Below are positions 10,806 through 57,785 of a DNA stretch of 64,000 nt, in pieces; position 1 is the stretch's first letter; each line of letters begins with the position of its first letter. The stretch lies in NCBI GenBank assembly GCA_033648345.1, contig GCA_033648345.1_4121.1; one strand, given 5' to 3'. Below the pieces are notes generated by a model. That model ran no database searches. It was not told the origin of the DNA and saw only the letters and a list, made by a program, of their open reading frames with translations. Source of the stretch: a phage. Both the position numbers and the translations under genes were made by a program.

Positions 10806-11177
10806 ATGAATATAGATTTGAAAGGTGCAACCCGAACTGTCATACTCATTGGGGAATATGCTATCAAGATTCCAACCTTTAAAAGTTGGAAGCTATTCTT
10901 AACAGGGATGATAGCTAACCTCAATGAACGTTCTTGGATGCAGTACTCCAAGCGTAGTGATAGTGGTATCTGCCCTACGTTGTGGTCATCATGTACTGGA
11001 CTAGTAACTGTACAGAAACGTTGTAAGCCAGTACAACATAGGGGTTTATTTTGGGTGGAGTTGTGTGCTTTAGCATTGGATTCAGAGTTGAGTACTGACT
11101 TCTTCTATTCAGATGCGAAGCCAGAAAACTTTGGGTATCTGGGTGGTAAGTTAGTTAAACTTGATTATGGAGATTAA
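10806..11177 (+). CDS. minimal protein-kinase-like protein (123 aa)
   Basis: Motif order AIK … DAKPENFG … KLDYGD resembles kinase beta3-Lys, catalytic loop and DFG-like; ends just after DYG. Confidence 0.45.
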   Translation: MNIDLKGATRTVILIGEYAIKIPTFKSWKLFLTGMIANLNERSWMQYSKRSDSGICPTLWSSCTGLVTVQKRCKPVQHRGLFWVELCALALDSELSTDFFYSDAKPENFGYLGGKLVKLDYGD

Positions 11178-11178
11178 T

Positions 11179-11601
11179 ATGTACGCACTGTATAATAAAG
11201 AAAAGAAACAATTTGCTAAGGTTGAAAAATCGATTGATACATTTGGCATGTTTAAGTACTGTATTGTGACGGACCCATATGCTAACTTGTATTACGTTCT
11301 TGATGACGTATCAGTACTGCAACGATTGCTTGAACGTTCCAAAAGCCAATGTCAAGGTATCCATGATGGTTCAACTTATGAAACACCTGAGTGTTCCTAT
11401 GGCTATCTGGATGGGTATGAGATTGTGAAGTTGGGTGCATTGTTGATTAATGAGGAATTTATGAAACTATGTACATGTGATGATTGTGGTAAACAAATAC
11501 CAGAAAGTGAAGTATATCGTAATGAAACTGCATTCGGTGATGATGGTGACTACTGTCAGGATTGTTTTTACGAGAACCATTATGATTTTGGCGATGATTA
11601 A
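11179..11601 (+). CDS. hypothetical protein with Cys-rich C-terminus (140 aa)
   Basis: GGAG SD; C-terminal CTCDDCGK…CQDC suggests a zinc ribbon. Confidence 0.55.
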   Translation: MYALYNKEKKQFAKVEKSIDTFGMFKYCIVTDPYANLYYVLDDVSVLQRLLERSKSQCQGIHDGSTYETPECSYGYLDGYEIVKLGALLINEEFMKLCTCDDCGKQIPESEVYRNETAFGDDGDYCQDCFYENHYDFGDD

Positions 11602-11607
11602 AACAAA

Positions 11608-11640
11608 GGGTTGACTTCGGTCAGCCCTTTTTGTTATAAT
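11608..11640 (+). promoter_or_regulatory. terminator-hairpin/promoter composite (PeSL-like)
   Basis: GGGTTGAC-TTCG-GTCAGCCC hairpin + T-tract; TATAAT 11635-11640. Confidence 0.6.
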
Positions 11641-11668
11641 CATTTCATCGAAACGAGAGGATGAATAC

Positions 11669-12145
11669 ATGACACGCATTAACTTAGTACACGTTAAAGA
11701 ACTTGCTGACCAACATCTGATGGCTGAATATCGTGAACTCCCACGTGTATTTGGTGCTGTACAAAAACACGTTCAAGCACGTAAGCGTGTACGTGATTTC
11801 AAAATTAACAGTACTTACCTGTTAGGTTCAGGTCATGTAACATTCTTCTACAACAAGTTATTGTACTTACAGAAGCGTCATATTGAAATTGTTAACGAAT
11901 GTTTGCGTCGTGGTATGAAGATTCAAAACATTGAATTAAACGACATTAGCGGCTTCCCTGCTGAGTTTTGTAATGACTACGTACCATCGGAGTCAGAGAT
12001 TAAAATGTCTCGTGAGCGTTTGATTGAGAAGCTACAGATGAAGCCTACGTGGTATAAGTTTACTGATGTTGAATGTCCACAGTACGTTAAAGATATGTTG
12101 AATGAAATTGAAGAACAAATCAAAGATGAAATGAATAACTATTAA
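11669..12145 (+). CDS. denV: pyrimidine-dimer DNA glycosylase / endonuclease V (T4 DenV family)
   Basis: N-terminus MTRINL…[21 protein letters not shown]…KRVRDFKI…GHVTFFY…RPTWYK recalled as near-identical to T4 endonuclease V over most of the length. Confidence 0.93.
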
Positions 12146-12151
12146 AGGAAA

Positions 12152-12186
12152 AGGTTGACTTCGGTCAGCCATTTTTGTTATTATAG
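12152..12186 (+). promoter_or_regulatory. terminator-hairpin/promoter composite (PeSL-like)
   Basis: GGTTGAC-TTCG-GTCAGCC hairpin + T-tract, then -10-like TTATTATA. Confidence 0.55.
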
Positions 12187-12214
12187 CTCTATCGAAACGA
12201 ATGAGGATTAAGTA

Positions 12215-12472
12215 ATGATTAAATTAAAATTTGAAGGTATGCGTGATGGGAATGGTAACCTAATCATTACACGAGGTACTAAAGCAGTACGATGCTTAGA
12301 AGAACATGGTATTGAATTTACTATTCCATACGATGATATCAGGATTAAAGAGGATACGGTACTGGAATTGCCACTCACTACATTTGAAGAATTGAATGCA
12401 TTTTGTCAAACATATAATGCACTAATCACTTTCGATGAACGTAATTGTGTTATTGAATTTTTACAACACTGA
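12215..12472 (+). CDS. hypothetical protein (85 aa)
   Basis: ORF with GAGGA SD. Confidence 0.6.
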   Translation: MIKLKFEGMRDGNGNLIITRGTKAVRCLEEHGIEFTIPYDDIRIKEDTVLELPLTTFEELNAFCQTYNALITFDERNCVIEFLQH

Positions 12473-12491
12473 TGATTAAGTAATAAAGAAA

Positions 12492-12524
12492 GGGTTGACA
12501 CTAGTCAGCCCTTTTTGCTATAAT
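12492..12524 (+). promoter_or_regulatory. terminator-hairpin/promoter composite (PeSL-like, loop variant)
   Basis: GGGTTGACA-CTA-GTCAGCCC hairpin + T-tract; TATAAT 12519-12524. Confidence 0.55.
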
Positions 12525-12552
12525 CATTTCATCAACTCAAGAGGATAAAGAC

Positions 12553-13326
12553 ATGACCCGTACAGAGAAAGCAATCCAAATCGAAAAGAACTTCAACAGC
12601 ATGATGGCAGCTTTGGAATGTTTACTTGATACCCAAGCTAATTCAATCAATTCCCTGATTGTATCTGGTAAAGGTGGTGTTGGTAAAACTTACAACGTTG
12701 ACCAGCGTTTACAGAAAGCTGATGATAACTTTGAAATCGACTACAAAAAGATCAGCGGTAAAGTAACCACTATGGGTTTGTACGAAGCACTGTATCGTTC
12801 ACGTCATGCCGCTTCAGTACTGTTACTTGATGACGTTGATATCTTCTCTGACGAGACTAATATTGATTTGCTTAAAGCTGTGTTGGATACGTCAGAGAAG
12901 CGTGTAGTTTCTTACGCGACTTCTGCTAAGTACCTGGAACAGCAGGGTATCCCTAAGCAGTTTGAATTCCGTGGTAAAGTAATCTTTCTGACTAACAAAA
13001 ACCTGTCACAGATTGCTAAAGGTAAAAGCAGCTTAGCACCACACATCGATGCACTGATCACTCGTAGTATCTTTGTTGACCTGCAACTGTTCACCAACGA
13101 AGAAGTGATGATTCACATTGAGAACATCATGAACAAAACTAACATCCTTGAAAACAATGGTGTTAACAAAAATGGTTGTAAAGCAATCCTGAATTGGATG
13201 CTGAACAACGAAGAACGTTTGCGTAGTCCATCACTGCGTATGCCAGTACTGATCGCTGGTCTGTATAATAAATTCCCATACGATTGGGAATCAATGGCAG
13301 AGAATATGTTCCTTGAGAAAATTTAA
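12553..13326 (+). CDS. P-loop NTPase with deviant Walker A (257 aa)
   Basis: Walker A SGKGGVGKT and Walker B-like VLLLDDVD. Confidence 0.75.
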   Translation: MTRTEKAIQIEKNFNSMMAALECLLDTQANSINSLIVSGKGGVGKTYNVDQRLQKADDNFEIDYKKISGKVTTMGLYEALYRSRHAASVLLLDDVDIFSDETNIDLLKAVLDTSEKRVVSYATSAKYLEQQGIPKQFEFRGKVIFLTNKNLSQIAKGKSSLAPHIDALITRSIFVDLQLFTNEEVMIHIENIMNKTNILENNGVNKNGCKAILNWMLNNEERLRSPSLRMPVLIAGLYNKFPYDWESMAENMFLEKI

Positions 13327-13393
13327 TTACATGTATTGACAGCACTACACTATGGTAGTACTATAACTTAATATTCACCACCGGAGATACGAT

Positions 13394-13732
13394 ATGCTTG
13401 AGTTTTTTAATTCAGATACAATGCTTAGTATTACTTTGATTTATCTGTTTGGTTTTTTCTTTTATCATGCACTAGTTGTAGTACTATGGTATTTTAAAAA
13501 GAAAATCGTTTTCAAACTGTATCCTGATGGAAACATTTCACTACTTCTTTTCACTATTATCCAAGGTATGTTTGCAATTGTTGGTCTTATCGCACACTTA
13601 ATTTATTGTGCTAATCCACAGTTGAACTCAATATCACAATATATTGTATTCCTTGGATTACTAATTTGGGTGCTGATATACTTGTTTAATATCATCATTA
13701 ATGGTCGAGCAAAAATTCGTGGGGACTTCTAA
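13394..13732 (+). CDS. small membrane protein, family M member 4 (112 aa)
   Basis: GGAGA SD; 3-4 TM segments. Confidence 0.65.
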   Translation: MLEFFNSDTMLSITLIYLFGFFFYHALVVVLWYFKKKIVFKLYPDGNISLLLFTIIQGMFAIVGLIAHLIYCANPQLNSISQYIVFLGLLIWVLIYLFNIIINGRAKIRGDF

Positions 13733-14079
13733 TGTTTGAATCTTATCTTGAGTTTTTAAAGAGTAGTTCTGTTGCACATTCAATTGCAGGGATTATTCTA
13801 ACAGGTTATGTAACATTTTGGGTAGTTATGTTTCTAGGATGGTATTTTAAACGACAATTCTATAAGCGTAATGGTGAAGATTTTATGAATTCTGTTATTA
13901 ATCAATCGTTGTTTGCATCAACATTGATAGCATGTATTGTAGCAACACTCACAGGAAAGGTACTGCCAGCATTCTCCGCAGTTTACGGTACATTGGGTAT
14001 GATATGTGTAGTTTTTTACTTGATCATTAAACTTTGTTGTGTTATGATTGACCTTCGAAACAAGATACCGGAGGAATGA
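13732..14079 (+). CDS. small membrane protein, family M member 5 (115 aa)
   Basis: Start overlaps previous stop; C-terminus …LRNKIPEE. Confidence 0.65.
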   Translation: MFESYLEFLKSSSVAHSIAGIILTGYVTFWVVMFLGWYFKRQFYKRNGEDFMNSVINQSLFASTLIACIVATLTGKVLPAFSAVYGTLGMICVVFYLIIKLCCVMIDLRNKIPEE

Positions 14080-14414
14080 TGGAATATTTTTTACACTTAC
14101 TGCCGTGGTATATGAAAGTTAGTACTATGTACTATATTCTTAGTGCTGGATTCTACTTTCTGATGTGGTTCTTCAAACGACCAATTTCAGTATTCATCTC
14201 TGATAACATGCTGCAATTAAAATTACACGCATGGTTTTTTATGGCGATGTTTATGCCTATTATTCACTACTCAATGATTAGTAGAGGTTTACGTTCTAAT
14301 GGTGAACCAATTATATTAGTATTCTATTGGGGTTCAACTATTGCATATGTAAGTTTGTTGTTGATCCCAGCCGTTCATAAATTACGTGCTAAAGTTCCTG
14401 ATGCGAGGTACTAA
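14076..14414 (+). CDS. small membrane protein, family M member 6 (112 aa)
   Basis: ATGA overlap; GGAGG SD; C-terminus …LRAKVPDARY. Confidence 0.65.
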   Translation: MMEYFLHLLPWYMKVSTMYYILSAGFYFLMWFFKRPISVFISDNMLQLKLHAWFFMAMFMPIIHYSMISRGLRSNGEPIILVFYWGSTIAYVSLLLIPAVHKLRAKVPDARY

Positions 14415-14728
14415 TGGATATCGTAACATTGATTTACACGCTTTATTCATTCTATTTTATTATGTGTTGGGTTGGATTTTTATTTGTATTGAAGATGTTT
14501 GATTATGTTGAAAAACAGATAAAAGAATTTTGTATTCCTTTTATTGGGTCAACCATAATTAGTATTACTTGTTTGTATTATTTGGTATGTGATCCACCTG
14601 TTAATACAGCAATGATTGACTTCATGTTATTACCAACAACTGTTATTTTTTTATGTAGTCTGATGCCACCGATTAGTCGTGGGCTAACCGAATTTAGACG
14701 CAATCAAAAGCGTAAACGAGGGATGTGA
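14414..14728 (+). CDS. small membrane protein, family M member 7 (104 aa)
   Basis: Overlapping start; basic C-terminal tail. Confidence 0.6.
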   Translation: MDIVTLIYTLYSFYFIMCWVGFLFVLKMFDYVEKQIKEFCIPFIGSTIISITCLYYLVCDPPVNTAMIDFMLLPTTVIFLCSLMPPISRGLTEFRRNQKRKRGM

Positions 14729-15096
14729 TGGAAATTGCACTTATTATATTAACTGCTATGTTGTTTATTAGTACAATTGTTATTATTGGCAAGTTCTTCT
14801 GTGTATCCTTCTTGGAAACCGTATACGATGAAATTGCTGATGATTATGAATTACATGCGGGATTTTTTACTACGTATTGGATTAGTTTATTACTACTTAT
14901 CACTGTATGGATTTTACATATATTCAAATGGGGTATGGTAGATGGTGATCCAGTACTGGCAATTATCTGTGTAGTGTTTGGTCTACTCGGTGGTGCTGTC
15001 CATAATCTGATGGTAATTTGGCAAACCGTACAATATGTATTAGTTCCACATTTTCAGAGAATGCATCAAAGCATCAAATACCGCAAACGAGGATAA
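14728..15096 (+). CDS. small membrane protein, family M member 8 (122 aa)
   Basis: ATG 14728 directly after previous stop (track start 14725 is GTG). Confidence 0.6.
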   Translation: MEIALIILTAMLFISTIVIIGKFFCVSFLETVYDEIADDYELHAGFFTTYWISLLLLITVWILHIFKWGMVDGDPVLAIICVVFGLLGGAVHNLMVIWQTVQYVLVPHFQRMHQSIKYRKRG

Positions 15097-15097
15097 C

Positions 15098-15460
15098 ATG
15101 AATAATATTGAATTATCTTTTATTGGTCAATTAATGGTAATGGCGTATACATTTATCTTCTCACTGAATGCATTCGTGTGCATTGGGAAGTACTTCCATA
15201 AGCGACCATTATCAAATATATATGATGTAATACAAAGGAGATATAGTCCAGCATATACTGTGTTGAGTACAGCATTCAATTTTGGTTTTATTCTAATGCT
15301 GGTTGCATTATTAACATCGAGTTTAAATTTTATAACATTTGGTATTATGGTATGTTCACTAACACTGAGTGTGGTTATTCTCTGTGCATCCGTTGAGTTG
15401 ATGGCGTGGATGTATTATAAGATTTCCGAAATCCATGACCGTTTAGGTAAGAGGAACTAA
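15098..15460 (+). CDS. small membrane protein, family M member 9 (120 aa)
   Basis: Hydrophobic ORF; C-terminus …RLGKRN. Confidence 0.6.
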   Translation: MNNIELSFIGQLMVMAYTFIFSLNAFVCIGKYFHKRPLSNIYDVIQRRYSPAYTVLSTAFNFGFILMLVALLTSSLNFITFGIMVCSLTLSVVILCASVELMAWMYYKISEIHDRLGKRN

Positions 15461-15461
15461 A

Positions 15462-15833
15462 ATGAGTTATCGTGAAATATTTTCGATCATTACTATTATT
15501 GTTTTTAGTTTAGGTTCTTTGGTGTGGTTATTGTATTACTTCTGTGTAACCCCAGTATATAATATGCTAAATTCAGTACGCTCTGATGTTGGTATTGTTT
15601 CTTTTATTATCTTCATGGCATATTATATGCTAAGTATCACAGGTTTGGTTTTGGTTGTTATCTTTGACCTTGGACCGAATCAAGATGGTATGGAGGTGTG
15701 GGAATTGATAACGATGTTTGCATGTATGATACCTGCATTTGGTGTATGTGCTGGTGTATTTTATGGGTTATGTAAAGGTGTGAACTACTTAAAAAATATC
15801 CACAATACTATTCGTAAAAAACGTATGTTATAA
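15462..15833 (+). CDS. small membrane protein, family M member 10 (123 aa)
   Basis: GAGGAA SD; C-terminus …IRKKRML. Confidence 0.6.
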   Translation: MSYREIFSIITIIVFSLGSLVWLLYYFCVTPVYNMLNSVRSDVGIVSFIIFMAYYMLSITGLVLVVIFDLGPNQDGMEVWELITMFACMIPAFGVCAGVFYGLCKGVNYLKNIHNTIRKKRML

Positions 15834-15839
15834 TAAAAA

Positions 15840-15866
15840 TCCAGTACTATTATAGTACTGGATTAA
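15840..15866. terminator. bidirectional hairpin terminator between convergent genes
   Basis: TCCAGTACT-ATTAT-AGTACTGGA hairpin flanked by A/T tracts. Confidence 0.55.
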
Positions 15867-15868
15867 TT

Positions 15869-16993
15869 TTAATTATCTAAGCCACCAATTACACTGAACT
15901 GTGTGGTAACGTCTGAATTATTATCTATGTAAGTTCTTCTACCAACATAATATAGTTGTCCTTTAGCTTGAATAAAAGTTACGGTCCCTGTATTGAATGT
16001 TATAATATCATTGTATGTAATGTCAGGTGGTAGTGCTGCTGATAACGCAGTAACTTTACTTAATGCAGCACTAGCACTACCATTTATACCAGCAGCAATA
16101 CTACCAGTACCATAGAACTTATTATCTTTACCAATGAATACGTTGGCTGATGCTTGTGTAGCTGATGTTATTGCCTTACCAATTTGGAATGCGGTTCCTA
16201 TGGTGTATGGTGTGCTCCTGGCAGCGTCTATGCTTTGTGTATATCCATCCCCTAGCTGACCATTAACTTTGTCACCACATGAGTATAGAGTACCATTGTG
16301 GCTGTATATGATCCCACGGTTAGAGAAGCTAACAGCTTCTGCATTAGTCCATACTGGTGCGGTGTATGAGTTTACACGACTAGCGGTAGTTCCTAGACCT
16401 AGTATACCATATGTGTTATCACCACATCCAAACCATTGTCCAGAACTGTTTTGATAGAACACTGAACGTTCTGTTGATTCCATGCGTACAGCATCCACAG
16501 CACCACTTTTAACGAACGAAGTTGATGAGGATGTAGTACCAGTACCCAATGCACCATAAGTGTTTGTACCAATCGCATATATTGATCCTAGTGGTGTCAT
16601 AACACGTATGCAGTTATATCCCAATTGAACTTTACATTCAAATAGGTTGTCCCATATTTCAGGAACAGCAGAAAATAAATTTGTAATTTCGAACCATGAT
16701 GTTGTCGAACCAGTTAATCCTATACTGCTTTTGTTTCCTAAAATGAAAACAGTTTTGTCCTTCTTAATTATCCATGATGATAGGAAACCTATCTCACAGC
16801 TATGAACATTTGATTCTATTTGGGTAATATAATACTTAACTGTGTTATCACCCATGAATGCCGCAGCACCGGATGCAAAAAGGTTTCCAGTTTGTTTATT
16901 TAAAATGTAGTTATTGTTTCCATATACACTAACATCATAAGAACTTTCTTGTTTTTCGTTCCCATAATCAAATAACAATACGAAAGGTAACAT
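15869..16993 (-). CDS. RCC1-like beta-propeller repeat protein, array member 15 (374 aa)
   Basis: Starts MLPFVLLFDYGN; repeated […YxxGxNxxGxLGxG] blade-type motifs. Confidence 0.75.
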   Translation of the reverse strand: MLPFVLLFDYGNEKQESSYDVSVYGNNNYILNKQTGNLFASGAAAFMGDNTVKYYITQIESNVHSCEIGFLSSWIIKKDKTVFILGNKSSIGLTGSTTSWFEITNLFSAVPEIWDNLFECKVQLGYNCIRVMTPLGSIYAIGTNTYGALGTGTTSSSTSFVKSGAVDAVRMESTERSVFYQNSSGQWFGCGDNTYGILGLGTTASRVNSYTAPVWTNAEAVSFSNRGIIYSHNGTLYSCGDKVNGQLGDGYTQSIDAARSTPYTIGTAFQIGKAITSATQASANVFIGKDNKFYGTGSIAAGINGSASAALSKVTALSAALPPDITYNDIITFNTGTVTFIQAKGQLYYVGRRTYIDNNSDVTTQFSVIGGLDN

Positions 16994-17070
16994 GATAAAA
17001 TCTCCTTGTGTTATACTTTATTTAATCATTTTATAATGTACAATTTTACAGCGATTTAATTGAGGTACTC

Positions 17071-17721
17071 ATGAATAAAAGAAGTAAGTTCTATCAAGAA
17101 TATTTCACTAAACAGAAACGATTCACAAAAAAATACTTTACATCATCCCACCGACCAGTTGCAAGTTACAAACGTCCTAATACTAACTATCTTACTGGTG
17201 GCAAGTTTAGTGCAAAGTTCGAATTACTTATGCGTGAAAAGAATATCAAGATGCATTACGCAGAGACGAGAAAAAACTCATCAATTATTTGTTCTGATTT
17301 TCTTGAGTACGGTTGCTTAACTTATAAATTCAATGATGTATATTTGTATATTGATGTTGATTGTAACAGTACTCTTATGTTTGAGATTTCAATTCACCCA
17401 AATCACAACCGTTATATAAACATTAACTTGATTGATAAAGTACTGATTGGTATATCTAGTACTGATGGTGGTGGATTTGAATTTATTGCTTCAAAATATG
17501 ATGAAGATTTCGTACTTTACCCAGTACTTGATGATGTGAAAGATATACTCAATTCATTAAAAGGAAGTCAATACAAATTATCTGAAGAACAGCTATTTCA
17601 GTACTCACTTATTCATGATGATATCGAGATATACTTAGAGTGTGCGAGAATATTGGAGTATCTTTATAATGAACTAACAACAACTGGTAAAGTGACAGCA
17701 TTCACATTATATAATATGTAA
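17071..17721 (+). CDS. hypothetical protein (216 aa), opposite strand inside the array
   Basis: ORF with GAGGT SD; flanked by the array's hairpin terminator. Confidence 0.6.
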   Translation: MNKRSKFYQEYFTKQKRFTKKYFTSSHRPVASYKRPNTNYLTGGKFSAKFELLMREKNIKMHYAETRKNSSIICSDFLEYGCLTYKFNDVYLYIDVDCNSTLMFEISIHPNHNRYININLIDKVLIGISSTDGGGFEFIASKYDEDFVLYPVLDDVKDILNSLKGSQYKLSEEQLFQYSLIHDDIEIYLECARILEYLYNELTTTGKVTAFTLYNM

Positions 17722-17728
17722 AAGAAAA

Positions 17729-17752
17729 GCCAGTACATAGTACTGGCATTAT
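17729..17752. terminator. hairpin terminator (array type)
   Basis: GCCAGTAC-ATAG-TACTGGC hairpin with flanking A/T tracts. Confidence 0.5.
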
Positions 17753-50724: not shown

Positions 50725-51066
50725 ATGACTATTGCAATTGCTCAATCTAACTTTGAAAATGAAATCATCGCCCAGGCACTGCGTTTAAATGATGGTCGGG
50801 CCGAAATTAATTACGGTTTCAATTCAGGCGGTTGTGAAAAATATCAGTACTTTGTAACTGCTGATGGCGGTGTCCTGGGCATCAATACCGTTATTGTAAA
50901 CATTCAGAAAATTAATTTCAATGATCCAGACGATAGCCAGTTTTACATTGTAGGCGTAGACGTGAACTATGAGGATGACTCACTAACTGATGATCACACT
51001 GGCGAGCGGTTAGAAAGTGCATACGGTGAAGATGATTATCAGTCCGGTCCAGAAGATTTCGAATAA
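50725..51066 (+). CDS. hypothetical acidic protein (113 aa)
   Basis: Promoter + GGGGAAACGGTTTCCCC hairpin + AAGGAAA SD. Confidence 0.65.
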   Translation: MTIAIAQSNFENEIIAQALRLNDGRAEINYGFNSGGCEKYQYFVTADGGVLGINTVIVNIQKINFNDPDDSQFYIVGVDVNYEDDSLTDDHTGERLESAYGEDDYQSGPEDFE

Positions 51067-51157
51067 TATAAAAAATAGTTTGACAATAGATTATAGTACT
51101 GTATAATTAATTACATCAAGGGGAGAATAGTTCTCCCCAACTAAGAGGAAAAAGAAA

Positions 51158-51340
51158 ATGGCTGAATTAATCGCTCGGAATACAATTGCAGGCGTTGAAG
51201 ATGTAACATTATCATATGATTCAGATAAACAAGTTTACGTCGTTCGTTATGGTCTGATTGGTGTTAACGTTGATTATATTGATGAAGCCTTTGAAAAATA
51301 CTTTGAATTTATTAATATGGCTTATAATGATTATCGTTAA
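51158..51340 (+). CDS. hypothetical protein (60 aa)
   Basis: Promoter TTGACA…TATAAT + hairpin + AGAGGA SD. Confidence 0.6.
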   Translation: MAELIARNTIAGVEDVTLSYDSDKQVYVVRYGLIGVNVDYIDEAFEKYFEFINMAYNDYR

Positions 51341-51430
51341 AAAATAGTTTGACAATAGATTATAGTACTGTATAATAGTTTACATCAAGGGGAGAAAAAC
51401 TTCTCCCCACTAACAGAGAGAGAAAACAAA

Positions 51431-51643
51431 ATGGCTAATATCTGCACTGTACTGAAAAATGCAAAACAAGTTTTATTTTCTGATCACGATCATTTAAACA
51501 AGGATATTACGGGCGTTCGGAATATCAAAGATGTAAAAAGTGTTATGGGTATCTATTGCAATATGAAACGTGTCGGCACGTTCGGCGATAAAGTACTATA
51601 CCAGGCAGGGGATTATAACTTCACATTAACCATCATCAATTAA
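51431..51643 (+). CDS. hypothetical protein (70 aa)
   Basis: Near-duplicate of the promoter upstream of 51158. Confidence 0.6.
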   Translation: MANICTVLKNAKQVLFSDHDHLNKDITGVRNIKDVKSVMGIYCNMKRVGTFGDKVLYQAGDYNFTLTIIN

Positions 51644-51733
51644 AATATATTACCAGTACTATTGACAACGTTTGATAGTACTGTATAATAAGTTTTATAA
51701 ACAGTAGTTAACTTAACCTAAGAGAGAAACAAA

Positions 51734-51877
51734 ATGATCGCACTGGATTCATTCATCGACGCAGTACTGGCAAAAACTGGCGAGGATCTGACCGCAGAAC
51801 AATACGCGATGATCGAGCAATGTCAGCAAAACGGTAAATCGGTGAAAGATACTGTTAAGATTATCCGCAAGATGTAA
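51734..51877 (+). CDS. hypothetical small protein (47 aa)
   Basis: Below track threshold; promoter TTGACA…TATAAT + AGAGAGA SD. Confidence 0.45.
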   Translation: MIALDSFIDAVLAKTGEDLTAEQYAMIEQCQQNGKSVKDTVKIIRKM

Positions 51878-51886
51878 TATTATAGC

Positions 51887-51912
51887 CCACTGGTTAACGC
51901 TGGTGGGCTTTA
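51887..51912 (+). terminator. hairpin terminator containing a Chi octamer
   Basis: AGCCCACTGG-TTAAC-GCTGGTGGGCT hairpin; weak U-tract. Confidence 0.45.
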
Positions 51913-51982
51913 ATCATTTACCCTATACAATGCCAGTACTCAACCGTTTATCTCGTTAGAATGCGTTACAGGACGTTTGACA

Positions 51983-52180
51983 ATGATTAGCATGAAATCA
52001 GTACAAAAACAAATAGAAACATTATCAAAAATTAAACGTAAACAATACTCCTTAGAATATACAATCAATGGTAACTATCATCTAATGAAAGAAAATAATT
52101 TTATAGTCATTGATGAATCATTGCAAATTATTAGTATAGTACTGAAAGCATTAATCAATGACAGAAAAAAATTAAAATAA
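51983..52180 (+). CDS. hypothetical protein (65 aa)
   Basis: ORF; start uncertain (ATG 51983 or 51992). Confidence 0.45.
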   Translation: MISMKSVQKQIETLSKIKRKQYSLEYTINGNYHLMKENNFIVIDESLQIISIVLKALINDRKKLK

Positions 52181-52183
52181 TTG

Positions 52184-52212
52184 TTGACATACAATGCCAG
52201 TACTGGCATAAT
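52184..52212 (+). promoter_or_regulatory. sigma70-type promoter driving element E copy
   Basis: TTGACA 52184-52189, 17-nt spacer with AGTACTG, CATAAT 52207-52212. Confidence 0.55.
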
Positions 52213-52217
52213 ACTTA

Positions 52218-52266
52218 CATCAAGACGAGAACGTCACTAACCCATAGGGTGCACAAATGTAACTAT
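52218..52266 (+). ncRNA. candidate small RNA/leader (element E)
   Basis: CATCAAGACGAGAACGTCACTAACCCATAGGGTGCACAAATGTAACTAT; no ORF. Confidence 0.3.
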
Positions 52267-52508
52267 ATAATATCGATCAATAAATGATCAAAAAAGTACT
52301 GGATCAATTTAGCATAAGGAGTATAATTCTGATCAATTCTTGATCAAAGGCAATATACGCAGTTGAATTTATATAGACAGTACAAAGGCGTTACTATCCG
52401 TGGTAATGCTGGTGGATATGTAGTATCATATGGTTTGAATAAGATTAGCACTAGTAGTATTATTGTAGCATTACAGTACTATAGTATTTTTATAATGAGG
52501 TTAAAATA

Positions 52509-52766
52509 ATGGCTGTTGGATTCGCGAAGGACGGGGCCGAGCAAGACGAGATTAACGCAGTGATTCAGGCCGCTGTAAACCACGCTAGAAAGCAAATTAA
52601 CGCACAAAGAGAATCACTGGTACATTGCCTCGACTGCGGCGATAAAATCCCTGAGAATCGACGCCAGGCCGTTATAGGGTGCATGTATTGTATTACTTGC
52701 CAGGAGGATCATGATAGTACTTTTAAAAGAGATCCGCGTAATTGTTGGCATAGATCTATGAGATAA
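52509..52766 (+). CDS. TraR/DksA-type C4 zinc-finger protein (85 aa)
   Basis: CLDCGDKIPENRRQA…CMYCITC four-cysteine motif. Confidence 0.7.
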   Translation: MAVGFAKDGAEQDEINAVIQAAVNHARKQINAQRESLVHCLDCGDKIPENRRQAVIGCMYCITCQEDHDSTFKRDPRNCWHRSMR

Positions 52767-52830
52767 AAAGTAATTGACAGTACTGAAAGATAGTGTATAA
52801 TGTTTTATATCTTAACTGAGGATTGAAATC

Positions 52831-53187
52831 ATGGGTATTCAACACATCACGCGTACTACTGACAATGGCGAGATCACTGGTTATCAGGTACAGGGCAAAG
52901 TAGCACAATTGCAGTACTGGTTTGTTAAACGTGGAATCATTGCACCGGATCTTGATTATGACCGTGTAGCGTTTATTGATTCTCTTTATGTTGATCCTGA
53001 TAGTCGGGGCAATGGTGAAGGTAACGAATTAATGAATGCCTTTATTGATGCCGCCGATGATTCAGATTGTATCATCTTAGAATGCGATACGGGAGAAGAT
53101 AACGCCTTTAATCTTAAAGAATGGTACGAAGGCTTCGGATTCGAGGTATTGATAGATAGTGAATATCCTATCATGATTTTATCATAG
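52831..53187 (+). CDS. possible GNAT-family acetyltransferase (118 aa)
   Basis: IDSLYVDPDSRGNGEGNELMNAFID resembles acetyl-CoA binding motif A; assignment tentative. Confidence 0.45.
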   Translation: MGIQHITRTTDNGEITGYQVQGKVAQLQYWFVKRGIIAPDLDYDRVAFIDSLYVDPDSRGNGEGNELMNAFIDAADDSDCIILECDTGEDNAFNLKEWYEGFGFEVLIDSEYPIMILS

Positions 53188-53266
53188 TACTTGCATTTAG
53201 TTTTCAGTACTGTTATAGTACTTGCATCAAGGGGAAACATCTTCCCCTACTAAGAGGAAATAAAAA

Positions 53267-53455
53267 ATGGAAAACTTATCAAGTATTTTAGTACAAGATG
53301 ATTTCGGTAATCCTGGAAGTGCTATCATTGTTCGGGGCAATAAAGCAACGTTTGTTATTGCTGGTGGACCCGTACAGCGTAGCATTAAAAATAATGCTGT
53401 TACCATTAATAATGTACGCTATCGCTTAGATAAAGAATTAATTCATAAACTGTAA
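53267..53455 (+). CDS. hypothetical protein (62 aa)
   Basis: Promoter + hairpin + AGAGGA SD. Confidence 0.6.
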   Translation: MENLSSILVQDDFGNPGSAIIVRGNKATFVIAGGPVQRSIKNNAVTINNVRYRLDKELIHKL

Positions 53456-53482
53456 TATTAATTTAATAGAGGATAACAATAA

Positions 53483-53806
53483 ATGTACATTCATACTACT
53501 ATCACAAAGGAAGTCCGTTGCCAGTTCGAAAGTATTCCGGGCGTATGTTTCATCACTGGTACGTTTTCCCCTGGTGATCGTGATAATCCAGTACTGTTAC
53601 AATTACGCCATCCATCATGGGATAAAGCATTTGATCTACCGTTGAATGAATTCGCAACTACTGCTGAAAAGTACATTAAAAATATTCGCGAGAATGATCG
53701 ACTATTCATTAATGCTTTTAGTGATTCCGCGTTAAGCGAGATCCACGGCGTATTGGTTGCAATCATGGAATCAATGCAGAAAACTAAATTCAAACAAGGT
53801 GAATAA
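53483..53806 (+). CDS. hypothetical protein (107 aa)
   Basis: AGAGGA SD. Confidence 0.6.
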   Translation: MYIHTTITKEVRCQFESIPGVCFITGTFSPGDRDNPVLLQLRHPSWDKAFDLPLNEFATTAEKYIKNIRENDRLFINAFSDSALSEIHGVLVAIMESMQKTKFKQGE

Positions 53807-53889
53807 AAACTATTGACAATGCAATCCAGTACTGTATAATAGTTTACATGAAGGGGAGAAATGATTCTCCCCACTAAGAGGAAAGAAAA

Positions 53890-54102
53890 ATGCAAGGTCA
53901 ACTAATCGTTCGTAAATGGTCTGATACTAACGAAAAACCGTGGGATGTACAATACATCGCCCCAAATGGTGAATCCAGATATCAACCAGGTGTAACGCAT
54001 AGTACTGAGCAATTCGCCGCCGCTCATCGCGAACGTCTGTTACAATCAATGCAGCAAGGTTCCGGTGAAAAATTCATTCAGGATCATTGGCTGAAAGATT
54101 AA
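53890..54102 (+). CDS. hypothetical protein (70 aa)
   Basis: Promoter + GGGGAGAAATGATTCTCCCC hairpin + AGAGGA SD. Confidence 0.6.
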   Translation: MQGQLIVRKWSDTNEKPWDVQYIAPNGESRYQPGVTHSTEQFAAAHRERLLQSMQQGSGEKFIQDHWLKD

Positions 54103-54188
54103 AAAGTACTTGCACTGTACTGAATAAAGTGTATAATGTTTTATATCGGAAGGGGAATAGTTCCCCTCCGAACAAAGAGGAAAGTATA

Positions 54189-54362
54189 ATGGTCCAGGTA
54201 GAATTAACAGTACTGAAAGATCTGTTTTATCGGATTGGTACTACTGGCGAATATCCGAAGGGTGATAATGCAAAACTTTACGTATCACTCGACTTATGGC
54301 AACGCGAACAATTAGCAACGGCCTGGCGTAAAGGCAAAGCAGATCGAGAGGTGAAAGCATGA
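54189..54362 (+). CDS. hypothetical small protein (57 aa)
   Basis: Promoter + GGAAGGGGAATAGTTCCCCTCC hairpin + AGAGGA SD; track start 54087 is in the promoter. Confidence 0.55.
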   Translation: MVQVELTVLKDLFYRIGTTGEYPKGDNAKLYVSLDLWQREQLATAWRKGKADREVKA

Positions 54363-54508
54363 AAGAATTCTTATTTGAAGTAGTGTTTCAAGGTGTCGGC
54401 AATAACCAACTGATTCGATCAAGTGGTTATAATGTTAACCAGGCATGGAATAACATTAAACAAATGTACCCGAACGCTATCACATATCGCAACCCGAAAG
54501 AAGTTTAA
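54359..54508 (+). CDS. hypothetical small protein (49 aa)
   Basis: ATGA overlap with previous stop. Confidence 0.4.
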   Translation: MKEFLFEVVFQGVGNNQLIRSSGYNVNQAWNNIKQMYPNAITYRNPKEV

Positions 54509-54522
54509 AAATAATTGAAAAA

Positions 54523-54558
54523 GGGATTGACTCCGGTCAGTCCCTTTGCTATTATATA
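54523..54558 (+). promoter_or_regulatory. terminator-hairpin/promoter composite (PeSL-like)
   Basis: GGGATTGAC-TCCG-GTCAGTCCC hairpin + TTTGCTATTATATA. Confidence 0.6.
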
Positions 54559-54603
54559 CGCATAGAAACAAATTAGCCCACCGGGTGCATAAATGTATCT
54601 ATT
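54559..54603 (+). ncRNA. candidate small RNA/leader (element E) downstream of PeSL
   Basis: …AATTAGCCCACCGGGTGCATAAATGTATCTATTG followed by a Chi octamer at 54608. Confidence 0.3.
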
Positions 54604-54690
54604 GTTTGCTGGTGGCTAGTACTATCAAGTACTGAAAACTATTTTTAAAAAGTACTTGCAAAGTATCACGATAAGCGTATAATGTTTTAC

Positions 54691-54770
54691 ATCAGGACGG
54701 GGAACGAAACAAGTAACCCCGTTAAGTAGTCCAGGAGTAAGACATACGAAAAACTCCCCTGATAAAATAG
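54691..54770 (+). ncRNA. conserved non-coding leader between tandem promoters (element L)
   Basis: Near-identical to 43731-43810. Confidence 0.35.
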
Positions 54771-54832
54771 TTTGACAATAGAAAGTAAACGAGTATAATA
54801 CTTACATCAACCACTGATAAGGAAACATTAAA

Positions 54833-55108
54833 ATGCGGATTCTACTGACAGCTAACGAAATCGAACAAGTACTGACTACTAACCTGGAAGACTGGAAACG
54901 TGAAGCAGATATCCAGGCGGTTCAATGGCTTAACGATAAGTTAACGCCGGATGACTTAAGCAAGATTGTAGATCCTCAATTCTACGAAGATATTCACGAC
55001 ACCGCGTTAAGCGTCGAGGATGTACTTGATAAGCACTACATTGATACTGATTTACATGTTTACGGTCGTAAAAACTTTATCACTATTCACGACATTTACA
55101 ATACTTAA
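54833..55108 (+). CDS. hypothetical protein (91 aa)
   Basis: AAGGAAA SD. Confidence 0.6.
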   Translation: MRILLTANEIEQVLTTNLEDWKREADIQAVQWLNDKLTPDDLSKIVDPQFYEDIHDTALSVEDVLDKHYIDTDLHVYGRKNFITIHDIYNT

Positions 55109-55196
55109 GTATTGACAAAGTATCTTAGTACTGTATAATAGTTTACATCAAGTGAGGGGAAACGGTTCCCCTCCTAACAAAGAGAGAGAAATAAAA

Positions 55197-55379
55197 ATGG
55201 CTAAGTGCACTATCTGCAAGAAAGAAATAGTATTAGTTCCAAGTGCCCGTGAACGTGCCGCTCGGTTTGGTGGCAAAGCGTCAGACTATACAAAAATGTT
55301 TACTGCCCATACAGCTTGCCAGGTAGCAAAACGTTCACAAGAAAGCGTAGAATTAATGCGTAAACTTTCCAAAAAATAA
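55197..55379 (+). CDS. small Cys-containing protein (60 aa)
   Basis: Promoter TTGACA…TATAAT + GAGGGGAAACGGTTCCCCTC hairpin; MAKCTICKK…HTAC. Confidence 0.55.
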   Translation: MAKCTICKKEIVLVPSARERAARFGGKASDYTKMFTAHTACQVAKRSQESVELMRKLSKK

Positions 55380-55465
55380 GTATTGACAAAGTATCTTAGT
55401 ACTGTATAATAGTTTACATCAAGTGAGGGGAAACGGTTCCCCTCCTAACAGAGAGAGAAATAAAA

Positions 55466-55789
55466 ATGGCTATGATCCTTACCCAGAAAGTGGAATTGAA
55501 AATTGTAACCTCCTTTGACATTAAAGTTAATCGGTGGACTGATTCACACGGCAATACTTACCACTCTTGCTACGTGTCTGCGTTAATTGGCGACCGCTGG
55601 GAAGACCTGGGACACGAAACCTTTACATACGGTTACGGTACGCAAGGCGAATACACTGGTTTGGAGATCATTAAAGAAACCGTTATAGGTTTCAACCCGA
55701 AAGAAAAAGTTATTCACCGCATCGAAAAAGAGATTAACAAAGAAATAACAGTTCGCTACTACGATGTAAAACGTAAGAAAGACATGTAA
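55466..55789 (+). CDS. hypothetical protein (107 aa), paralogue of 48606-48950
   Basis: Exact duplicate of the promoter module upstream of 55197. Confidence 0.65.
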   Translation: MAMILTQKVELKIVTSFDIKVNRWTDSHGNTYHSCYVSALIGDRWEDLGHETFTYGYGTQGEYTGLEIIKETVIGFNPKEKVIHRIEKEINKEITVRYYDVKRKKDM

Positions 55790-55884
55790 TAGAATCCATT
55801 TAAAGTACTATTTGACATTGCCCAGATAGTACTTTATAATAGACTCTAACTTGTAGTACTAACTCAACTAATAGGATGTATACC

Positions 55885-56280
55885 ATGATTACTAAATTCT
55901 ACGCTACCCGTGAAGCTGCCCGTATTGTTGCACGCGAGGAAGGAGCAGCATTTAAAGACATGGGAACGACAGCACCGAAAGGTCAACGCTGGGCCGTACA
56001 GTTCAAAGAAATCTCTGATATTGTGAATTCACCTGAGCCAGTACTGACAGCAGCAGAACTAAAACGAGCGGATATGCTGGCGGCAATACTTGACGCACAA
56101 GATGAGTTTATCGCTGATTCTGATATCAAAGTACAGGTAAACCACACCGCATGGACTCACGCGGATCACCTGGCAAACCTTAAGCGTCCAAGTGAACTGA
56201 TTCGCAACCAGAAAGAGATCCGACATGATCGTAAGGGTAATCGTGTAACAGTATACAGTAAACGCCGCCAGGTTATCTAA
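55885..56280 (+). CDS. hypothetical protein (131 aa), paralogue of 42862-43128
   Basis: Promoter TTGACA…TATAAT; AGGATG SD then ATG 55885. Confidence 0.6.
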   Translation: MITKFYATREAARIVAREEGAAFKDMGTTAPKGQRWAVQFKEISDIVNSPEPVLTAAELKRADMLAAILDAQDEFIADSDIKVQVNHTAWTHADHLANLKRPSELIRNQKEIRHDRKGNRVTVYSKRRQVI

Positions 56281-56302
56281 TAACTTGCAGTACTAACAAC
56301 AC

Positions 56303-56328
56303 GGCGGGATCAGTTCCCGCCTTTTTTA
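56303..56328 (+). terminator. rho-independent terminator
   Basis: GGCGGGATCAGTTCCCGCC hairpin + TTTTTT. Confidence 0.7.
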
Positions 56329-56341
56329 TAGGACAAACAAA

Positions 56342-56596
56342 ATGATTAAGGTTCAACTATATAAAGATAACATCTTACGGGTACACTATAAAGCACCGAA
56401 GAGAATCATCACAAAGGCCGTACAGCTTGCTAATGAGTTTATTAATGGTAACCTATTACCGAGGAAGTTAAGCAACGGGAAACTGCGTGTAATCGACGTG
56501 GACACTAACAACAGGATAGTAATCGAGAACACAGGAAAGATAAACCTTTATGAGCATCAACAATACAATAAGAAAATAAAACTAATATCACGTTGA
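56342..56596 (+). CDS. hypothetical protein (84 aa)
   Basis: ORF, weak SD. Confidence 0.5.
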   Translation: MIKVQLYKDNILRVHYKAPKRIITKAVQLANEFINGNLLPRKLSNGKLRVIDVDTNNRIVIENTGKINLYEHQQYNKKIKLISR

Positions 56597-56649
56597 CAGT
56601 ACTCAATTGTTTTAGTATTATGTACACATACCAACACGGGAGAAACAAA

Positions 56650-56868
56650 ATGAAATTATCTAAAATCGAAAAGAAAACTATTGATGAAGCAGTTAAGCAC
56701 GGTTATACCTTTCGTAATGATTCACATTTTACCAATTATCAACAAGGGTATCGTACTATTAAAAAACTTATTGACAAAGGTTTATTAGTTGAAGTCAATA
56801 ACGGCAATGGCATTGAGTATCAACCAACACAGGACGCATTTTATTTTAAGAAATATAATATTATCTAA
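56650..56868 (+). CDS. hypothetical protein (72 aa)
   Basis: Promoter TTGACAGTACTCAA…; GGGAGA SD then ATG 56650. Confidence 0.55.
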   Translation: MKLSKIEKKTIDEAVKHGYTFRNDSHFTNYQQGYRTIKKLIDKGLLVEVNNGNGIEYQPTQDAFYFKKYNII

Positions 56869-56926
56869 TTGACAGTACTCAAATGTTTTAGTACTATATG
56901 TACATACCAACACGGGGGAAAACAAA

Positions 56927-57169
56927 ATGATTACTTTAGAAAAACGTATCAAAGAAACTACATCGCTGGTGGAATTGTTAACAGTACTCAAATGTAAAAC
57001 AACACCATTCAGCACGCCGGACTTTATTAATATGGTTGATGTTAACGGTCGTTATCGCATTGCAGTAGAACATGGAACAGCGAAAGTATTCAGTACTAAA
57101 AACACTAAGGAAGTGATTCACGCGGTTAGTGTGAAAAAAGTGGTTGCCATTGATAGTAAAGTACTGTAA
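56927..57169 (+). CDS. hypothetical protein (80 aa)
   Basis: Near-duplicate of the promoter upstream of 56650. Confidence 0.6.
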   Translation: MITLEKRIKETTSLVELLTVLKCKTTPFSTPDFINMVDVNGRYRIAVEHGTAKVFSTKNTKEVIHAVSVKKVVAIDSKVL

Positions 57170-57200
57170 TATAGTTTCATTAACTCAAGGAGTAAATGCA

Positions 57201-57785
57201 ATGCGTAATTATACTAAATTCATCCGTACACTGTCAGAAATGGAAACCAACAAAGAGATCCTTTCAGCTTGTCGGTTAGCTGGCCTGGAGATCATCGGTG
57301 CTGGTTCTTCCCGTATAGTATTCGCTTTAAATGATCGGTTAGTGATTAAGGTCGCGAATTGTGATGCGGGTGTAGAACAAAATGAAACTGAATGTAAGGT
57401 ATGGAATTTTTTAGACTATGACCGCCCTCAGTTGAAACAGTACTTTGCAAAGGTGCATATGCATTTATGCGATCCTGATAATATGTTTATCGTTATGGAT
57501 CGGTTGAGTACTGCAAGCAAAGGCAGTGTGAAGCACGTTAACGCGTGCAATGAATTAAAGTACAATATTAAACGTAATGCAATCGAACGCCAGCACCGCT
57601 TTGCTGATGCACTACAACACGTTGATGATACATTATCAACACTAACGATAAGAGATATCAGAAAACAGAATATCGGCCAGGATCGTAATGGCCTTATTAA
57701 AGTACTTGATTACGGTTTAACCAGCAATATCTGGAATCAGTACTATAAAAAGCGTGATGTGGCAGCAAGTAAAGTAACACGATAA
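57201..57785 (+). CDS. protein-kinase-like protein (194 aa)
   Basis: AAGGAG SD; GAGSSRIVF (Gly-rich loop), VIKV, IRDIRKQNIG (catalytic-loop-like), KVLDYG (DFG-like) in kinase order. Confidence 0.55.
   Translation: MRNYTKFIRTLSEMETNKEILSACRLAGLEIIGAGSSRIVFALNDRLVIKVANCDAGVEQNETECKVWNFLDYDRPQLKQYFAKVHMHLCDPDNMFIVMDRLSTASKGSVKHVNACNELKYNIKRNAIERQHRFADALQHVDDTLSTLTIRDIRKQNIGQDRNGLIKVLDYGLTSNIWNQYYKKRDVAASKVTR

Follow-up and report, generated by a model that had tools for sequence, protein, structure and literature searches.

Can a protein kinase end at its DFG motif? The question is raised by two small genes in a 64,000-nucleotide stretch of phage DNA (contig GCA_033648345.1_4121.1, the whole of which is hereafter called the window): K1, coding for 123 amino acids (10806..11177, plus strand), and K2, coding for 194 amino acids (57201..57785, plus strand). 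A sequence-only reading of the window had described both products as minimal protein-kinase-like proteins and had likened them to gp0.7 of phage T7 (T7K), with pseudokinases as the alternative. We are highly confident that both K1 and K2 have a kinase-like fold, and by profile comparison they belong, as divergent members, to a single large superfamily carried by phages, phrog_4301. The answer towards which we lean, with moderate confidence and from the residues retained, is that both are active phosphotransferases.

The window corresponds to the genus Asteriusvirus, Escherichia jumbo phages of 350-380 kb (PBECO4, 121Q, vB_EcoM_G17, fEgEco12 and others), with 95-98% nucleotide identity, and its G+C content is 33-40%. 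Both open reading frames (ORFs) were found on the plus strand at the positions first noted, and the motifs picked out at the outset are present in kinase order: AIK (residues 19-21), DAKPENFG (103-110) and KLDYGD (118-123) in K1, and GAGSSRIVF (33-41), VIKV (47-50), IRDIRKQNIG (150-159) and KVLDYG (167-172) in K2. K1 consists of an N-lobe, one C-lobe helix, the catalytic loop, beta7-beta8, DYG and the stop codon; K2 consists of two N-terminal helices, the N-lobe, a helical insert, the catalytic loop, DYG and a short C-terminal helix. Only one residue follows the Gly of DYG (G122) in K1, and 22 residues follow G172 in K2. The two genes are separated by 46 kb and belong to separate transcription units, and the span 10806-57785 is not one locus. 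The start of K2 was assigned to ATG 57201 and not to TTG 57144, because an AAGGAG Shine-Dalgarno sequence (57187-57192) lies ahead of the ATG, because homologues of K2 all begin at the Met equivalent to this ATG, and because the TTG marks the first base of a -35-like hexamer; the 213-residue ORF starting at TTG 57144 was thus ruled out.

Both proteins matched the same profile, phrog_4301, which is annotated as "unknown function": K1 with an expectation value (E) of 1.8e-43 at profile positions 40-167 of 225, and K2 with E 1.8e-41 at positions 13-185 of 225. Alignment of the K2 family against the K1 family by hhalign gave 97.6% probability and E 3.4e-12, in register from the glycine loop to DYG, while BLASTP of K1 against K2 aligned only the stretch from the catalytic loop to DYG. 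When the K1 hidden Markov model (HMM) was run across the ORFs of the window, K2 was the sole other match (E 8.6e-6). No third paralogue was found among the six-frame ORFs of at least 50 amino acids in the window, using the family HMMs and phmmer with T7K. At least 140 homologues of K1, with a median length of 123 amino acids, were found in Asteriusvirus, Salmonella lambdoid prophages, (pro)phages of Acinetobacter and Aquimarina, and many metagenomes. The K1-family alignment comprises 114 sequences (30-55% identity; mean column identity 32%), and the K2-family alignment 78 sequences (mean column identity 18%). In an exhaustive profile search with the K2 family, 2072 cluster representatives passed E<=1e-3, and 248 passed the stricter cut-off of E<=1e-10. 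Genes of both types are found in jumbo phages, temperate prophages and metagenomes.

Apart from the catalytic-loop Asn in the wider K2 family, the catalytic residues of a kinase are conserved in these families. In the K1 family, R10, K21, G34, N38, E41 and D120 are invariant (114/114), and G7 (113/114), T9 (110/114) and G110 (110/114) are nearly so; D103, K105 and N108 are each present in 105/114 (about 92%). The features of K1, all on the plus strand, begin with a degenerate glycine loop, G7-A-T9-R10-T-V12 (10824..10841), located between predicted strands 2-4 and 10-15. This is followed by the beta3 lysine K21 of AIK (10866..10868) in predicted strand 18-23, and by the alphaC glutamate E41 of G34-x3-N38-x2-E41 (10926..10928) in helix 28-43. 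The catalytic loop D103-A-K105-P-E-N108 (11112..11129) resembles HRDLKPEN of Ser/Thr kinases and aligns in register with 'SDLKPANF' of TTK; its columns hold D in 105/114 (E in the other 9), P in 92/114 and E in 80/114. The DFG-equivalent D120-Y-G122 (11163..11171), with D in 114/114, Y in 82 and G in 93, stands just ahead of the TAA stop codon at 11175-11177.

For the K2 family, R38, K50, G57, Q60, E64, D170 and G172 were found in all 78 sequences, D152 in 77/78 and N61 in 74/78. The glycine loop G33-A-G35-S-S-R38-I-V-F41 (57297..57323, plus strand, as are all K2 features) retains G33 in 68/78, G35 in 71/78, S36 in 74/78 and R38 in 78/78, and aligns with the glycine loop of MKK7 and with the 'GNGHFS' loop of T7K. 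The beta3 lysine K50 of VIKV (57348..57350) is aligned to K93 of T7K, also within 'VIKV', and the alphaC glutamate E64 of G57-x2-Q60-N61-x2-E64 (57390..57392) lies in helix 55-73. The catalytic loop D152-I-R-K-Q-N157 (57654..57671) is aligned to 'RDIKPSN' of MKK4 and 'DMHSGN' of T7K, and the DFG-equivalent D170-Y-G172 (57708..57716; Y in 62/78) to D213 of the T7K motif DPV. Two features, neither of which has a counterpart in canonical kinases, are shared by both families. One is an invariant Arg at the third-Gly position of GxGxxG, which K1 shows as G-x-[ST]-R and K2 as G-x-G-S-S-R; the other is G-x3-N-x2-E in alphaC, with equal spacing in K1 (G34/N38/E41) and K2 (G57/N61/E64). As the beta3 Lys and alphaC Glu are both kept without exception, K21/E41 in 114/114 and K50/E64 in 78/78, retention of the Lys-Glu ion pair is predicted for both families. 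Lys, Glu and both Asp are thus kept across more than 100 diverged homologues, and the worry that the motif matches might not be conserved did not materialise.

The predicted structures agree with this conservation. The AlphaFold2 model of K1, built on the 114-sequence alignment, has a mean predicted local distance difference test score (pLDDT) of 93.8 and a predicted template-modelling score (pTM) of 0.83. Its elements occur in the order strands 2-4, 10-15 and 18-23, helix 28-43, strands 58-61 and 68-71, helix 80-92, short helix 97-101, strands 109-112 and 115-118, and then the C-terminus; in the model these are beta1-3, alphaC, beta4-5, an alphaE-like helix, the catalytic loop and beta7-8. 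Foldseek against PDB returned 1655 matches for K1, and all 50 of the 50 matches listed are kinases, with a probability of about 1.0; the best by E-value were Legionella Lpg2603, the kinase domain of WbdD, TTK/MPS1 (query template-modelling score, TMq, up to 0.66) and RIOK2. In BFVD, K1 was matched best by phage proteins of 117-273 amino acids, nearly all "uncharacterized", among them proteins of Aeromonas phage PS1 (133 amino acids, TMq 0.86), Ralstonia phage RP12 (TMq 0.81), CBB, RaK2, Lacusarx and PaMx11. A member of the T7K family, RSB1 ORF7, was matched weakly and lower in the list (E 4e-3, TMq 0.55).

The K2 model, built on 78 sequences, has a pLDDT of 94.2 and a pTM of 0.90, and carries as extras two N-terminal helices, a helical insert (109-145) and a lone C-terminal helix (175-182). 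Its PDB matches included OSR1, Lpg2603, MEK1, APH(2''), PRPK and SAICAR synthase (TMq 0.41-0.47; probability about 1.0), all within the kinase/ATP-grasp-like fold group, APH(2'') and SAICAR synthase sharing the fold. The N-lobe order of strands and helix, beta1-3, alphaC and beta4-5, was modelled in both proteins at pLDDT above 90. Structure prediction, which had been proposed as a check and could have given a non-kinase fold, was thus kinase-like for both. The motif set is not due to chance, because it is near-invariant within the families, because hits to kinases in PDB are in register, and because both AlphaFold2 folds are kinase-like.

Both proteins are also set apart by what follows the DFG-equivalent. 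In 104 of the 114 K1 homologues only 1-3 residues remain past its Asp, that is, 0-1 after D-x-G, and the lengths of these homologues range from 109 to 137 amino acids with a median of 123. Relatives of K2 have a median of 24 residues past the Asp (range 5-45), typically forming one short helix with the consensus "LTxxVxxxxY". Neither family has a helical C-lobe after DFG: the activation segment, the P+1 loop and alphaF-alphaI are all missing, although the alphaF helix and the activation segment are, by textbook account, the scaffold of the kinase active site. It was correctly noticed from the sequence that most of the C-lobe is lacking in both, and this lack is a fixed family trait and not a truncation event. 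Because length and stop position are fixed across the family, a pseudogene or a sequencing truncation is excluded for K1. Five metagenomic proteins (P0141, P0143, P0147, P0152 and P0157) of 640-920 amino acids were observed to contain three or four complete tandem K2-like mini-kinase domains. P0143 has four such units and P0141 three, each stopping just past its DYG, and most tandem copies keep a recognisable G-x-G-S-S-R loop and a DYG-type motif. Since these polyproteins carry complete copies, the K2-like unit of about 190 residues is an autonomous domain.

By comparison with canonical Ser/Thr kinases (PF00069), D-A-K-P-E-N ... D-Y-G of K1 mirrors HRD-L-K-P-E-N ... D-F-G, including the Lys at D+2, and K2 is in register with MKK4 and MKK7. 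Unlike these kinases, K1 has no His-Arg before the catalytic Asp, and GxGxxG, the activation segment, APE and alphaF-alphaI are absent; the span from the glycine loop to DFG is 113-140 residues in K1 and K2, with little or nothing thereafter. The K2 family profile matched 252 PDB sequences at E<=1, and nearly all of the 60 listed are protein kinases, aligned in register from the glycine loop to DFG; the best was MKK4, at E 5e-5 to 1.5e-4. Weak Pfam hits were observed for a few K2 relatives, 6/78 to Pkinase and 2/78 to ABC1, and for none of the 114 K1 relatives (0/114) with the Pfam kinase models. Among the defence kinases of PADLOC, K1 matched none, and K2 showed weak core-kinase similarity to PD-T4-6 only (E 7e-4, 17 bits). 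K1 is annotated everywhere as "hypothetical protein", and K2 in some records, by automatic annotation, as "protein kinase domain-containing protein" or "serine/threonine-protein kinase PRP4". Neither family was found to be described in papers on minimal or smallest kinases, phage kinases, jumbo-phage phosphoproteomics or Asteriusvirus genomes, and neither is covered by a 2026 oral-microbiome survey of kinase-like domains.

Small kinase-fold enzymes without a classical activation segment are known among cellular proteins, namely Bud32/PRPK and RIO. PRPK and RIOK2 are among the structural matches of K2 (TMq 0.47) and K1 (TMq 0.60), respectively. Unlike K1 and K2, they keep a helical C-lobe, form Pfam families of their own, which no member of the K1 or K2 families matches, and are cellular housekeeping proteins, as opposed to products of phage accessory genes.

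The closest precedent in biology is T7K, and the relation proposed at the outset, that of an analogue, holds in part. Direct membership of K1 or K2 in the T7K family was rejected: neither gave a hit at E<=10 against PHROG 2828, the T7K family, for which T7K itself scores 3.6e-137; T7K gave no hit to phrog_4301; and comparison of the single T7K sequence with the K1 and K2 profiles was insignificant. When a T7K profile was made from eight homologues (T7, FE44, fPS-54-ocr, SFP20, EFA-1, RSB1, fENko-Kae01 and slurp01), it matched the K2 family with 92.5% probability and E 4.7e-7 over 147 columns, pairing K93 with K50, D195 with D152, and D213 with D170. For K2 the analogy is therefore backed by a probable remote homology of the families; the same profile did not match the K1 family.

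T7K resembles K1 and K2 in being a phage-encoded protein with an N-lobe, a catalytic loop and a DFG-equivalent, beyond which lie only about 20-30 residues. Its DPV motif comprises residues 213-215 (PMC13645617), and only about 25 residues separate it from the basic shut-off domain; natural standalone homologues of T7K end 20-31 residues past DP[VL], of which D-P is invariant. The isolated N-terminal kinase domain of one homologue, JSS1_004, phosphorylates DndFGH in vitro (PMC12345140). T7K is a hyperpromiscuous Ser/Thr/Tyr kinase that disarms defence systems (PMC13645617, PMC12345140), its indiscriminate phosphorylation disabling many of them (PMC13645617; Jiang et al. 2024 as cited there), and DPV has been proposed by the T7K authors as the basis of its constitutive activity. 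In T7 the gene is transcribed early by the host RNA polymerase, and matches to the sigma70 promoter consensus are found at the K1 and K2 units. T7K differs from K1 and K2, which have DYG in place of DPV (Y in 82/114 of the K1 family and 62/78 of the K2 family; G in 93/114 and 78/78, respectively), in lacking the invariant glycine-loop Arg and the alphaC (Q)N-x-x-E, and in possessing a shut-off/DNA-binding domain that K1 and K2 do not have.

Short standalone versions of T7K occur in jumbo phages, and distant homologues have been mentioned for jumbophages G17 and Munch (PMC13645617). K2 is probably not the G17 homologue meant there, since tblastn with T7K picks another gene of 213 amino acids, absent from the window. 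This gene, PSLUR01_00112 of Escherichia phage vB_Eco_slurp01 (L006, 1381-2022), carries G-x-G...FKV...DIHSSN...TDPL, which includes a DPL motif; by tblastn (E 8e-3 over T7K residues 68-230) it is the true homologue of T7 gp0.7. Its annotation is 'protein kinase' in Klebsiella phage fENko-Kae01 but 'hypothetical' in slurp01, and it would fit the homologue that PMC13645617 mentions for jumbophage G17. Asteriusvirus phages thus encode three different C-lobe-less kinase-like proteins, K1, K2 and the T7K-like one, because the T7K-like gene is distinct from both K1 and K2.

Taken together, we consider it somewhat probable that K1 and K2 are early-expressed phosphotransferases with an open active site, acting on host or defence proteins. 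Both retain the ATP-binding N-lobe, with a glycine-loop remnant bearing the invariant Arg, the beta3 Lys and the alphaC Glu, and of the C-lobe they retain one helix, the catalytic-loop Asp(/Asn), beta7-beta8 and the DYG metal-binding motif. Mg-ATP would be held between the Lys-Glu pair and the Asp of DYG, and the gamma-phosphate would be transferred via the catalytic-loop Asp. As the substrate side of the cleft is uncovered, host or defence proteins would be modified with little sequence specificity; with the substrate-binding half of the C-lobe gone, low specificity is expected, as in the distant relative T7K. That the two proteins bind ATP, are catalytic, have proteins as substrates, are made early and play any part against defences is our inference.

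Several results weigh against this proposal. The glycine loops are degenerate, with a single Gly in K1 and Arg for the third Gly of GxGxxG in both, and the catalytic-loop Asn of K2, N157, is kept in close relatives and in only 33/78 of the wider family, S, H or Q taking its place. On Pfam, K2 scores 17 bits (E 0.004) with Pkinase PF00069, below the gathering threshold of 31.7 bits, and K1 hits none of the kinase models; no NCBIfam model reaches threshold for either. The K1 profile gave sub-threshold hits only against PDB, 16 of 18 to TTK at E 0.4-1 ("sDakpenfGy...LvklDyg"), and its sequence tie to T7K runs through K2 only. The kinase assignment of K1 thus rests on the predicted structure and the link via K2. 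The promoters, finally, were called purely by match to the consensus, which is 9/12 for K2.

In the minimal bacterial effector kinases SteC, OspG/NleH, HopBF1 and Lpg2603 (Lem28), too, the fold is that of a kinase, the C-lobe is depleted and the motifs are atypical. HopBF1 was termed 'minimal and atypical' (PMC9950578), and Lpg2603 is the first or second solved structural match for the models of K1 and K2. These effectors differ in being secreted and acting in eukaryotic cells, and in having about 200 amino acids or more per kinase domain, K1 being about 80 residues shorter. No sequence match to them was found apart from a marginal hit of the K2 family profile to the SteC N-lobe (PDB 8jbi_D, E 0.0017), which hints at common ancestry of this Salmonella SPI-2 effector and the phage mini-kinases. 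SteC possesses the activation segment and the alphaF helix, neither of which K1 or K2 has. A further point against the proposal is that SteC cut 11-13 residues past its DFG-equivalent, a construct of roughly K2-like extent, is inactive; its alphaF and activation-segment phosphoserine are needed for ATP and substrate binding (PMC13395416). By this precedent, which bears on K1 especially, K1 might be unable to work alone. It may act only as a dimer or together with a host protein, or it may be a pseudokinase that binds nucleotides.

The last possibility, extended to both genes, is that they encode pseudokinases or nucleotide-binding regulators that bind ATP, another nucleotide or a host protein without phosphotransfer of their own, serving as an inhibitor, a decoy or an allosteric subunit, or gaining activity only when the missing C-lobe is supplied by another copy of the protein or by some host factor. 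Such a role would account for the want of anything canonical past DFG, for the degenerate glycine loop and for the variable Asn of the wider K2 family, and besides truncated SteC it has a parallel in OspG, a minimal effector kinase that requires its E2~ubiquitin partner (PMC13395416). What this reading leaves hard to explain is why, in 114 sequences, K21, E41 and D120 should be invariant and D103, K105 and N108 kept in about 92%, if not for catalysis. Pseudokinases usually lack one or more of Lys, the catalytic Asp and the DFG Asp, and such loss is not seen here; a length of about 120 amino acids is, on the other hand, typical of phage inhibitor and sponge proteins. T7K is highly active with almost nothing past its DFG-equivalent, and no conserved partner gene was found. 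We regard the pseudokinase as unlikely, though still deserving serious consideration.

Phosphotransfer to a small molecule is a further alternative, in which K1 and K2 would be kinases or other ATP-dependent transferases that phosphorylate, or attach a nucleotide to, a metabolite, an antibiotic-like compound, a sugar or lipid, or a nucleotide used in immune signalling. The presence of APH(2'') and SAICAR synthase among the Foldseek matches of K2 and of the WbdD kinase domain among the top matches of K1, the weak ABC1 hits of two of the 78 K2 relatives, and the non-canonical H or S for the catalytic-loop Asn in the wider K2 family are in its favour. In kinase-fold enzymes of this type, however, the substrate pocket is built by a C-terminal helical subdomain, which is precisely what is missing in K1 and K2. 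The loop D-A-K-P-E-N of K1 has the Ser/Thr protein-kinase form, and the only relatives studied by experiment, T7K by homology and SteC by profile hit, are protein kinases. This alternative is accordingly improbable.

That K1 is a decayed kinase fragment or half of a split gene, with coincidental motifs, is a very remote prospect and effectively refuted already: although K1 is far below the length of any described kinase domain, the next ORF begins 2 nucleotides past its stop and some relatives are called short (102 amino acids in Salmonella phage SD-1_S14, 84 in phage CMSTMSU), more than 100 homologues, found in enterobacterial, Acinetobacter, Aquimarina and metagenomic phages, share its length and stop, its fold is compact and confident, and motif conservation excludes chance. 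A split kinase completed by the downstream ORF (11179-11601) was likewise ruled out, as this 140-residue product belongs to PHROG 8563, gives no significant score with the mini-kinase profiles, and is not adjacent to K1 homologues in the Salmonella, Acinetobacter or Aquimarina phage contexts.

The kinase fold, phage kinases and minimal kinases are known; what is new is the architecture of K1, in which about 120 amino acids hold the full catalytic residue set and stop right after DFG, in more than 100 homologues. To our knowledge, no described kinase domain has this architecture. The K1 family represents either a minimal kinase that occurs naturally or a new class of nucleotide-binding proteins derived from kinases, and either outcome informs kinase evolution and protein design. 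Were K1 competent, a kinase N-lobe with a C-lobe stub of about 45 residues would be enough for phosphotransfer. The stronger claim, that the K1 family is a catalytically competent, autonomous protein kinase and the smallest kinase-fold enzyme known, we put forward tentatively and with some doubt. The unrelated DgkA, of 121 residues, has been called the smallest known kinase (PMC4703834), and K1 is of similar size. If this stronger claim is true, Asteriusvirus would deploy three different C-lobe-less kinases, and K1-type genes would constitute a widespread moron class whose products swamp the host with phosphorylation of low specificity, which might, for instance, disable its defence systems. 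If they are T7K-like in action, phosphorylation-based host takeover would be much commoner in phages than the picture centred on Autographiviridae implies. As K1 and K2 are small and predicted to fold well, direct tests should be cheap.

The surroundings of both genes are consistent with early expression. K1 is the fourth gene of a tight five-gene unit on the plus strand (9774-10328, 10340-10516, 10545-10796, K1, 11179-11601), headed by a perfect sigma70-consensus promoter TTGACA-16-TATAAT (9699..9726, plus strand; 12/12 consensus match), and no other strong plus-strand promoter was found between this promoter and K1. The unit is ended by a terminator-like hairpin (11605..11630, plus strand), the 5' arm of which carries the -35 sequence (TTGACT) of the denV promoter. 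Directly upstream of K2 is a sigma70-like promoter TTGCCA-17-TAATAT (57144..57172, plus strand), which has sequence in common with adjacent promoter repeats (families D4, D11 and D13), and 13 nucleotides past the K2 stop is a terminator-like hairpin (57798..57825, plus strand) with the -35 sequence of the next promoter embedded; this hairpin is repeated at 54498-54566 (family D5). Because sigma70-type promoters head both units, K1 and K2 are probably transcribed early by host RNA polymerase, as is T7 gp0.7. No transcript data for the genus Asteriusvirus were found in the literature.

Of the neighbouring genes, a function was assigned to denV only. This gene, for a pyrimidine-dimer DNA glycosylase of the T4 endonuclease V type (11669-12145, plus strand; Pyr_excise E 2.7e-15, phrog_1183 E 4.5e-58), is located directly downstream of the K1 unit. 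The last gene of the unit (11179-11601, plus strand), whose ATG lies 2 nucleotides past the K1 stop, encodes 140 amino acids with an N-terminal phrog_8563 domain and an acidic C-terminal tail, in which two CxxC pairs (CDDCGKQ...CQDC) suggest a zinc ribbon.

Elsewhere, K1-family genes were found in moron-type slots that vary among unrelated phages and prophages, and no partner gene is conserved beside them. In Salmonella lambdoid prophages (L002, 6001-6372) the gene is flanked by an Rz-type lysis gene and terminase Nu1, with HicAB and a DNA methyltransferase nearby; in Acinetobacter-type phage contigs (L013, 1318-1650 and 5001-5360) it lies within the head-tail module, the same locus having an Acb2/Tad1-hairpin gene (anti-CBASS/Thoeris sponge-like); and in an Aquimarina prophage it is found upstream of the genes for terminase.

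The region around K2 consists of small genes, many of them headed by a copy of a near-consensus promoter repeat. Such repeated sigma70 promoters, AAAAAGTACTTGCA or TTGACA, N17, TATAAT, were observed upstream of many small genes throughout 54098-59993, for example at 54098-54170, 54644-54716, 55104-55155, 55375-55426, 57915-57987, 58415-58466, 58961-59033, 59297-59369 and 59942-59993. The TTG 'starts' listed at 56593, 56869 and 57144 are the -35 hexamers of such promoters. A G+C-rich hairpin cassette, AAAGGG(A)TTGACT(C/T)CGGTCAG(T/C)CCCTTT, recurs at 11605-11640, 12153-12184, 54498-54566 and 57776-57844. Its TTGACT -35 sequence is located in the 5' arm of the stem and is followed after 17-18 nucleotides by a -10 sequence, TATAAT or TATTAT; as judged from this layout, the cassette is a fusion of a terminator-like stem with the promoter of the next gene. 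Across the window as a whole, the sign of the GC skew flips at about 16 kb, from plus to minus, and again at about 40 kb, from minus to plus. On this basis, transcription would be on the plus strand in the two flanks (1-16 kb and 40-64 kb) and on the minus strand in the central 24 kb.

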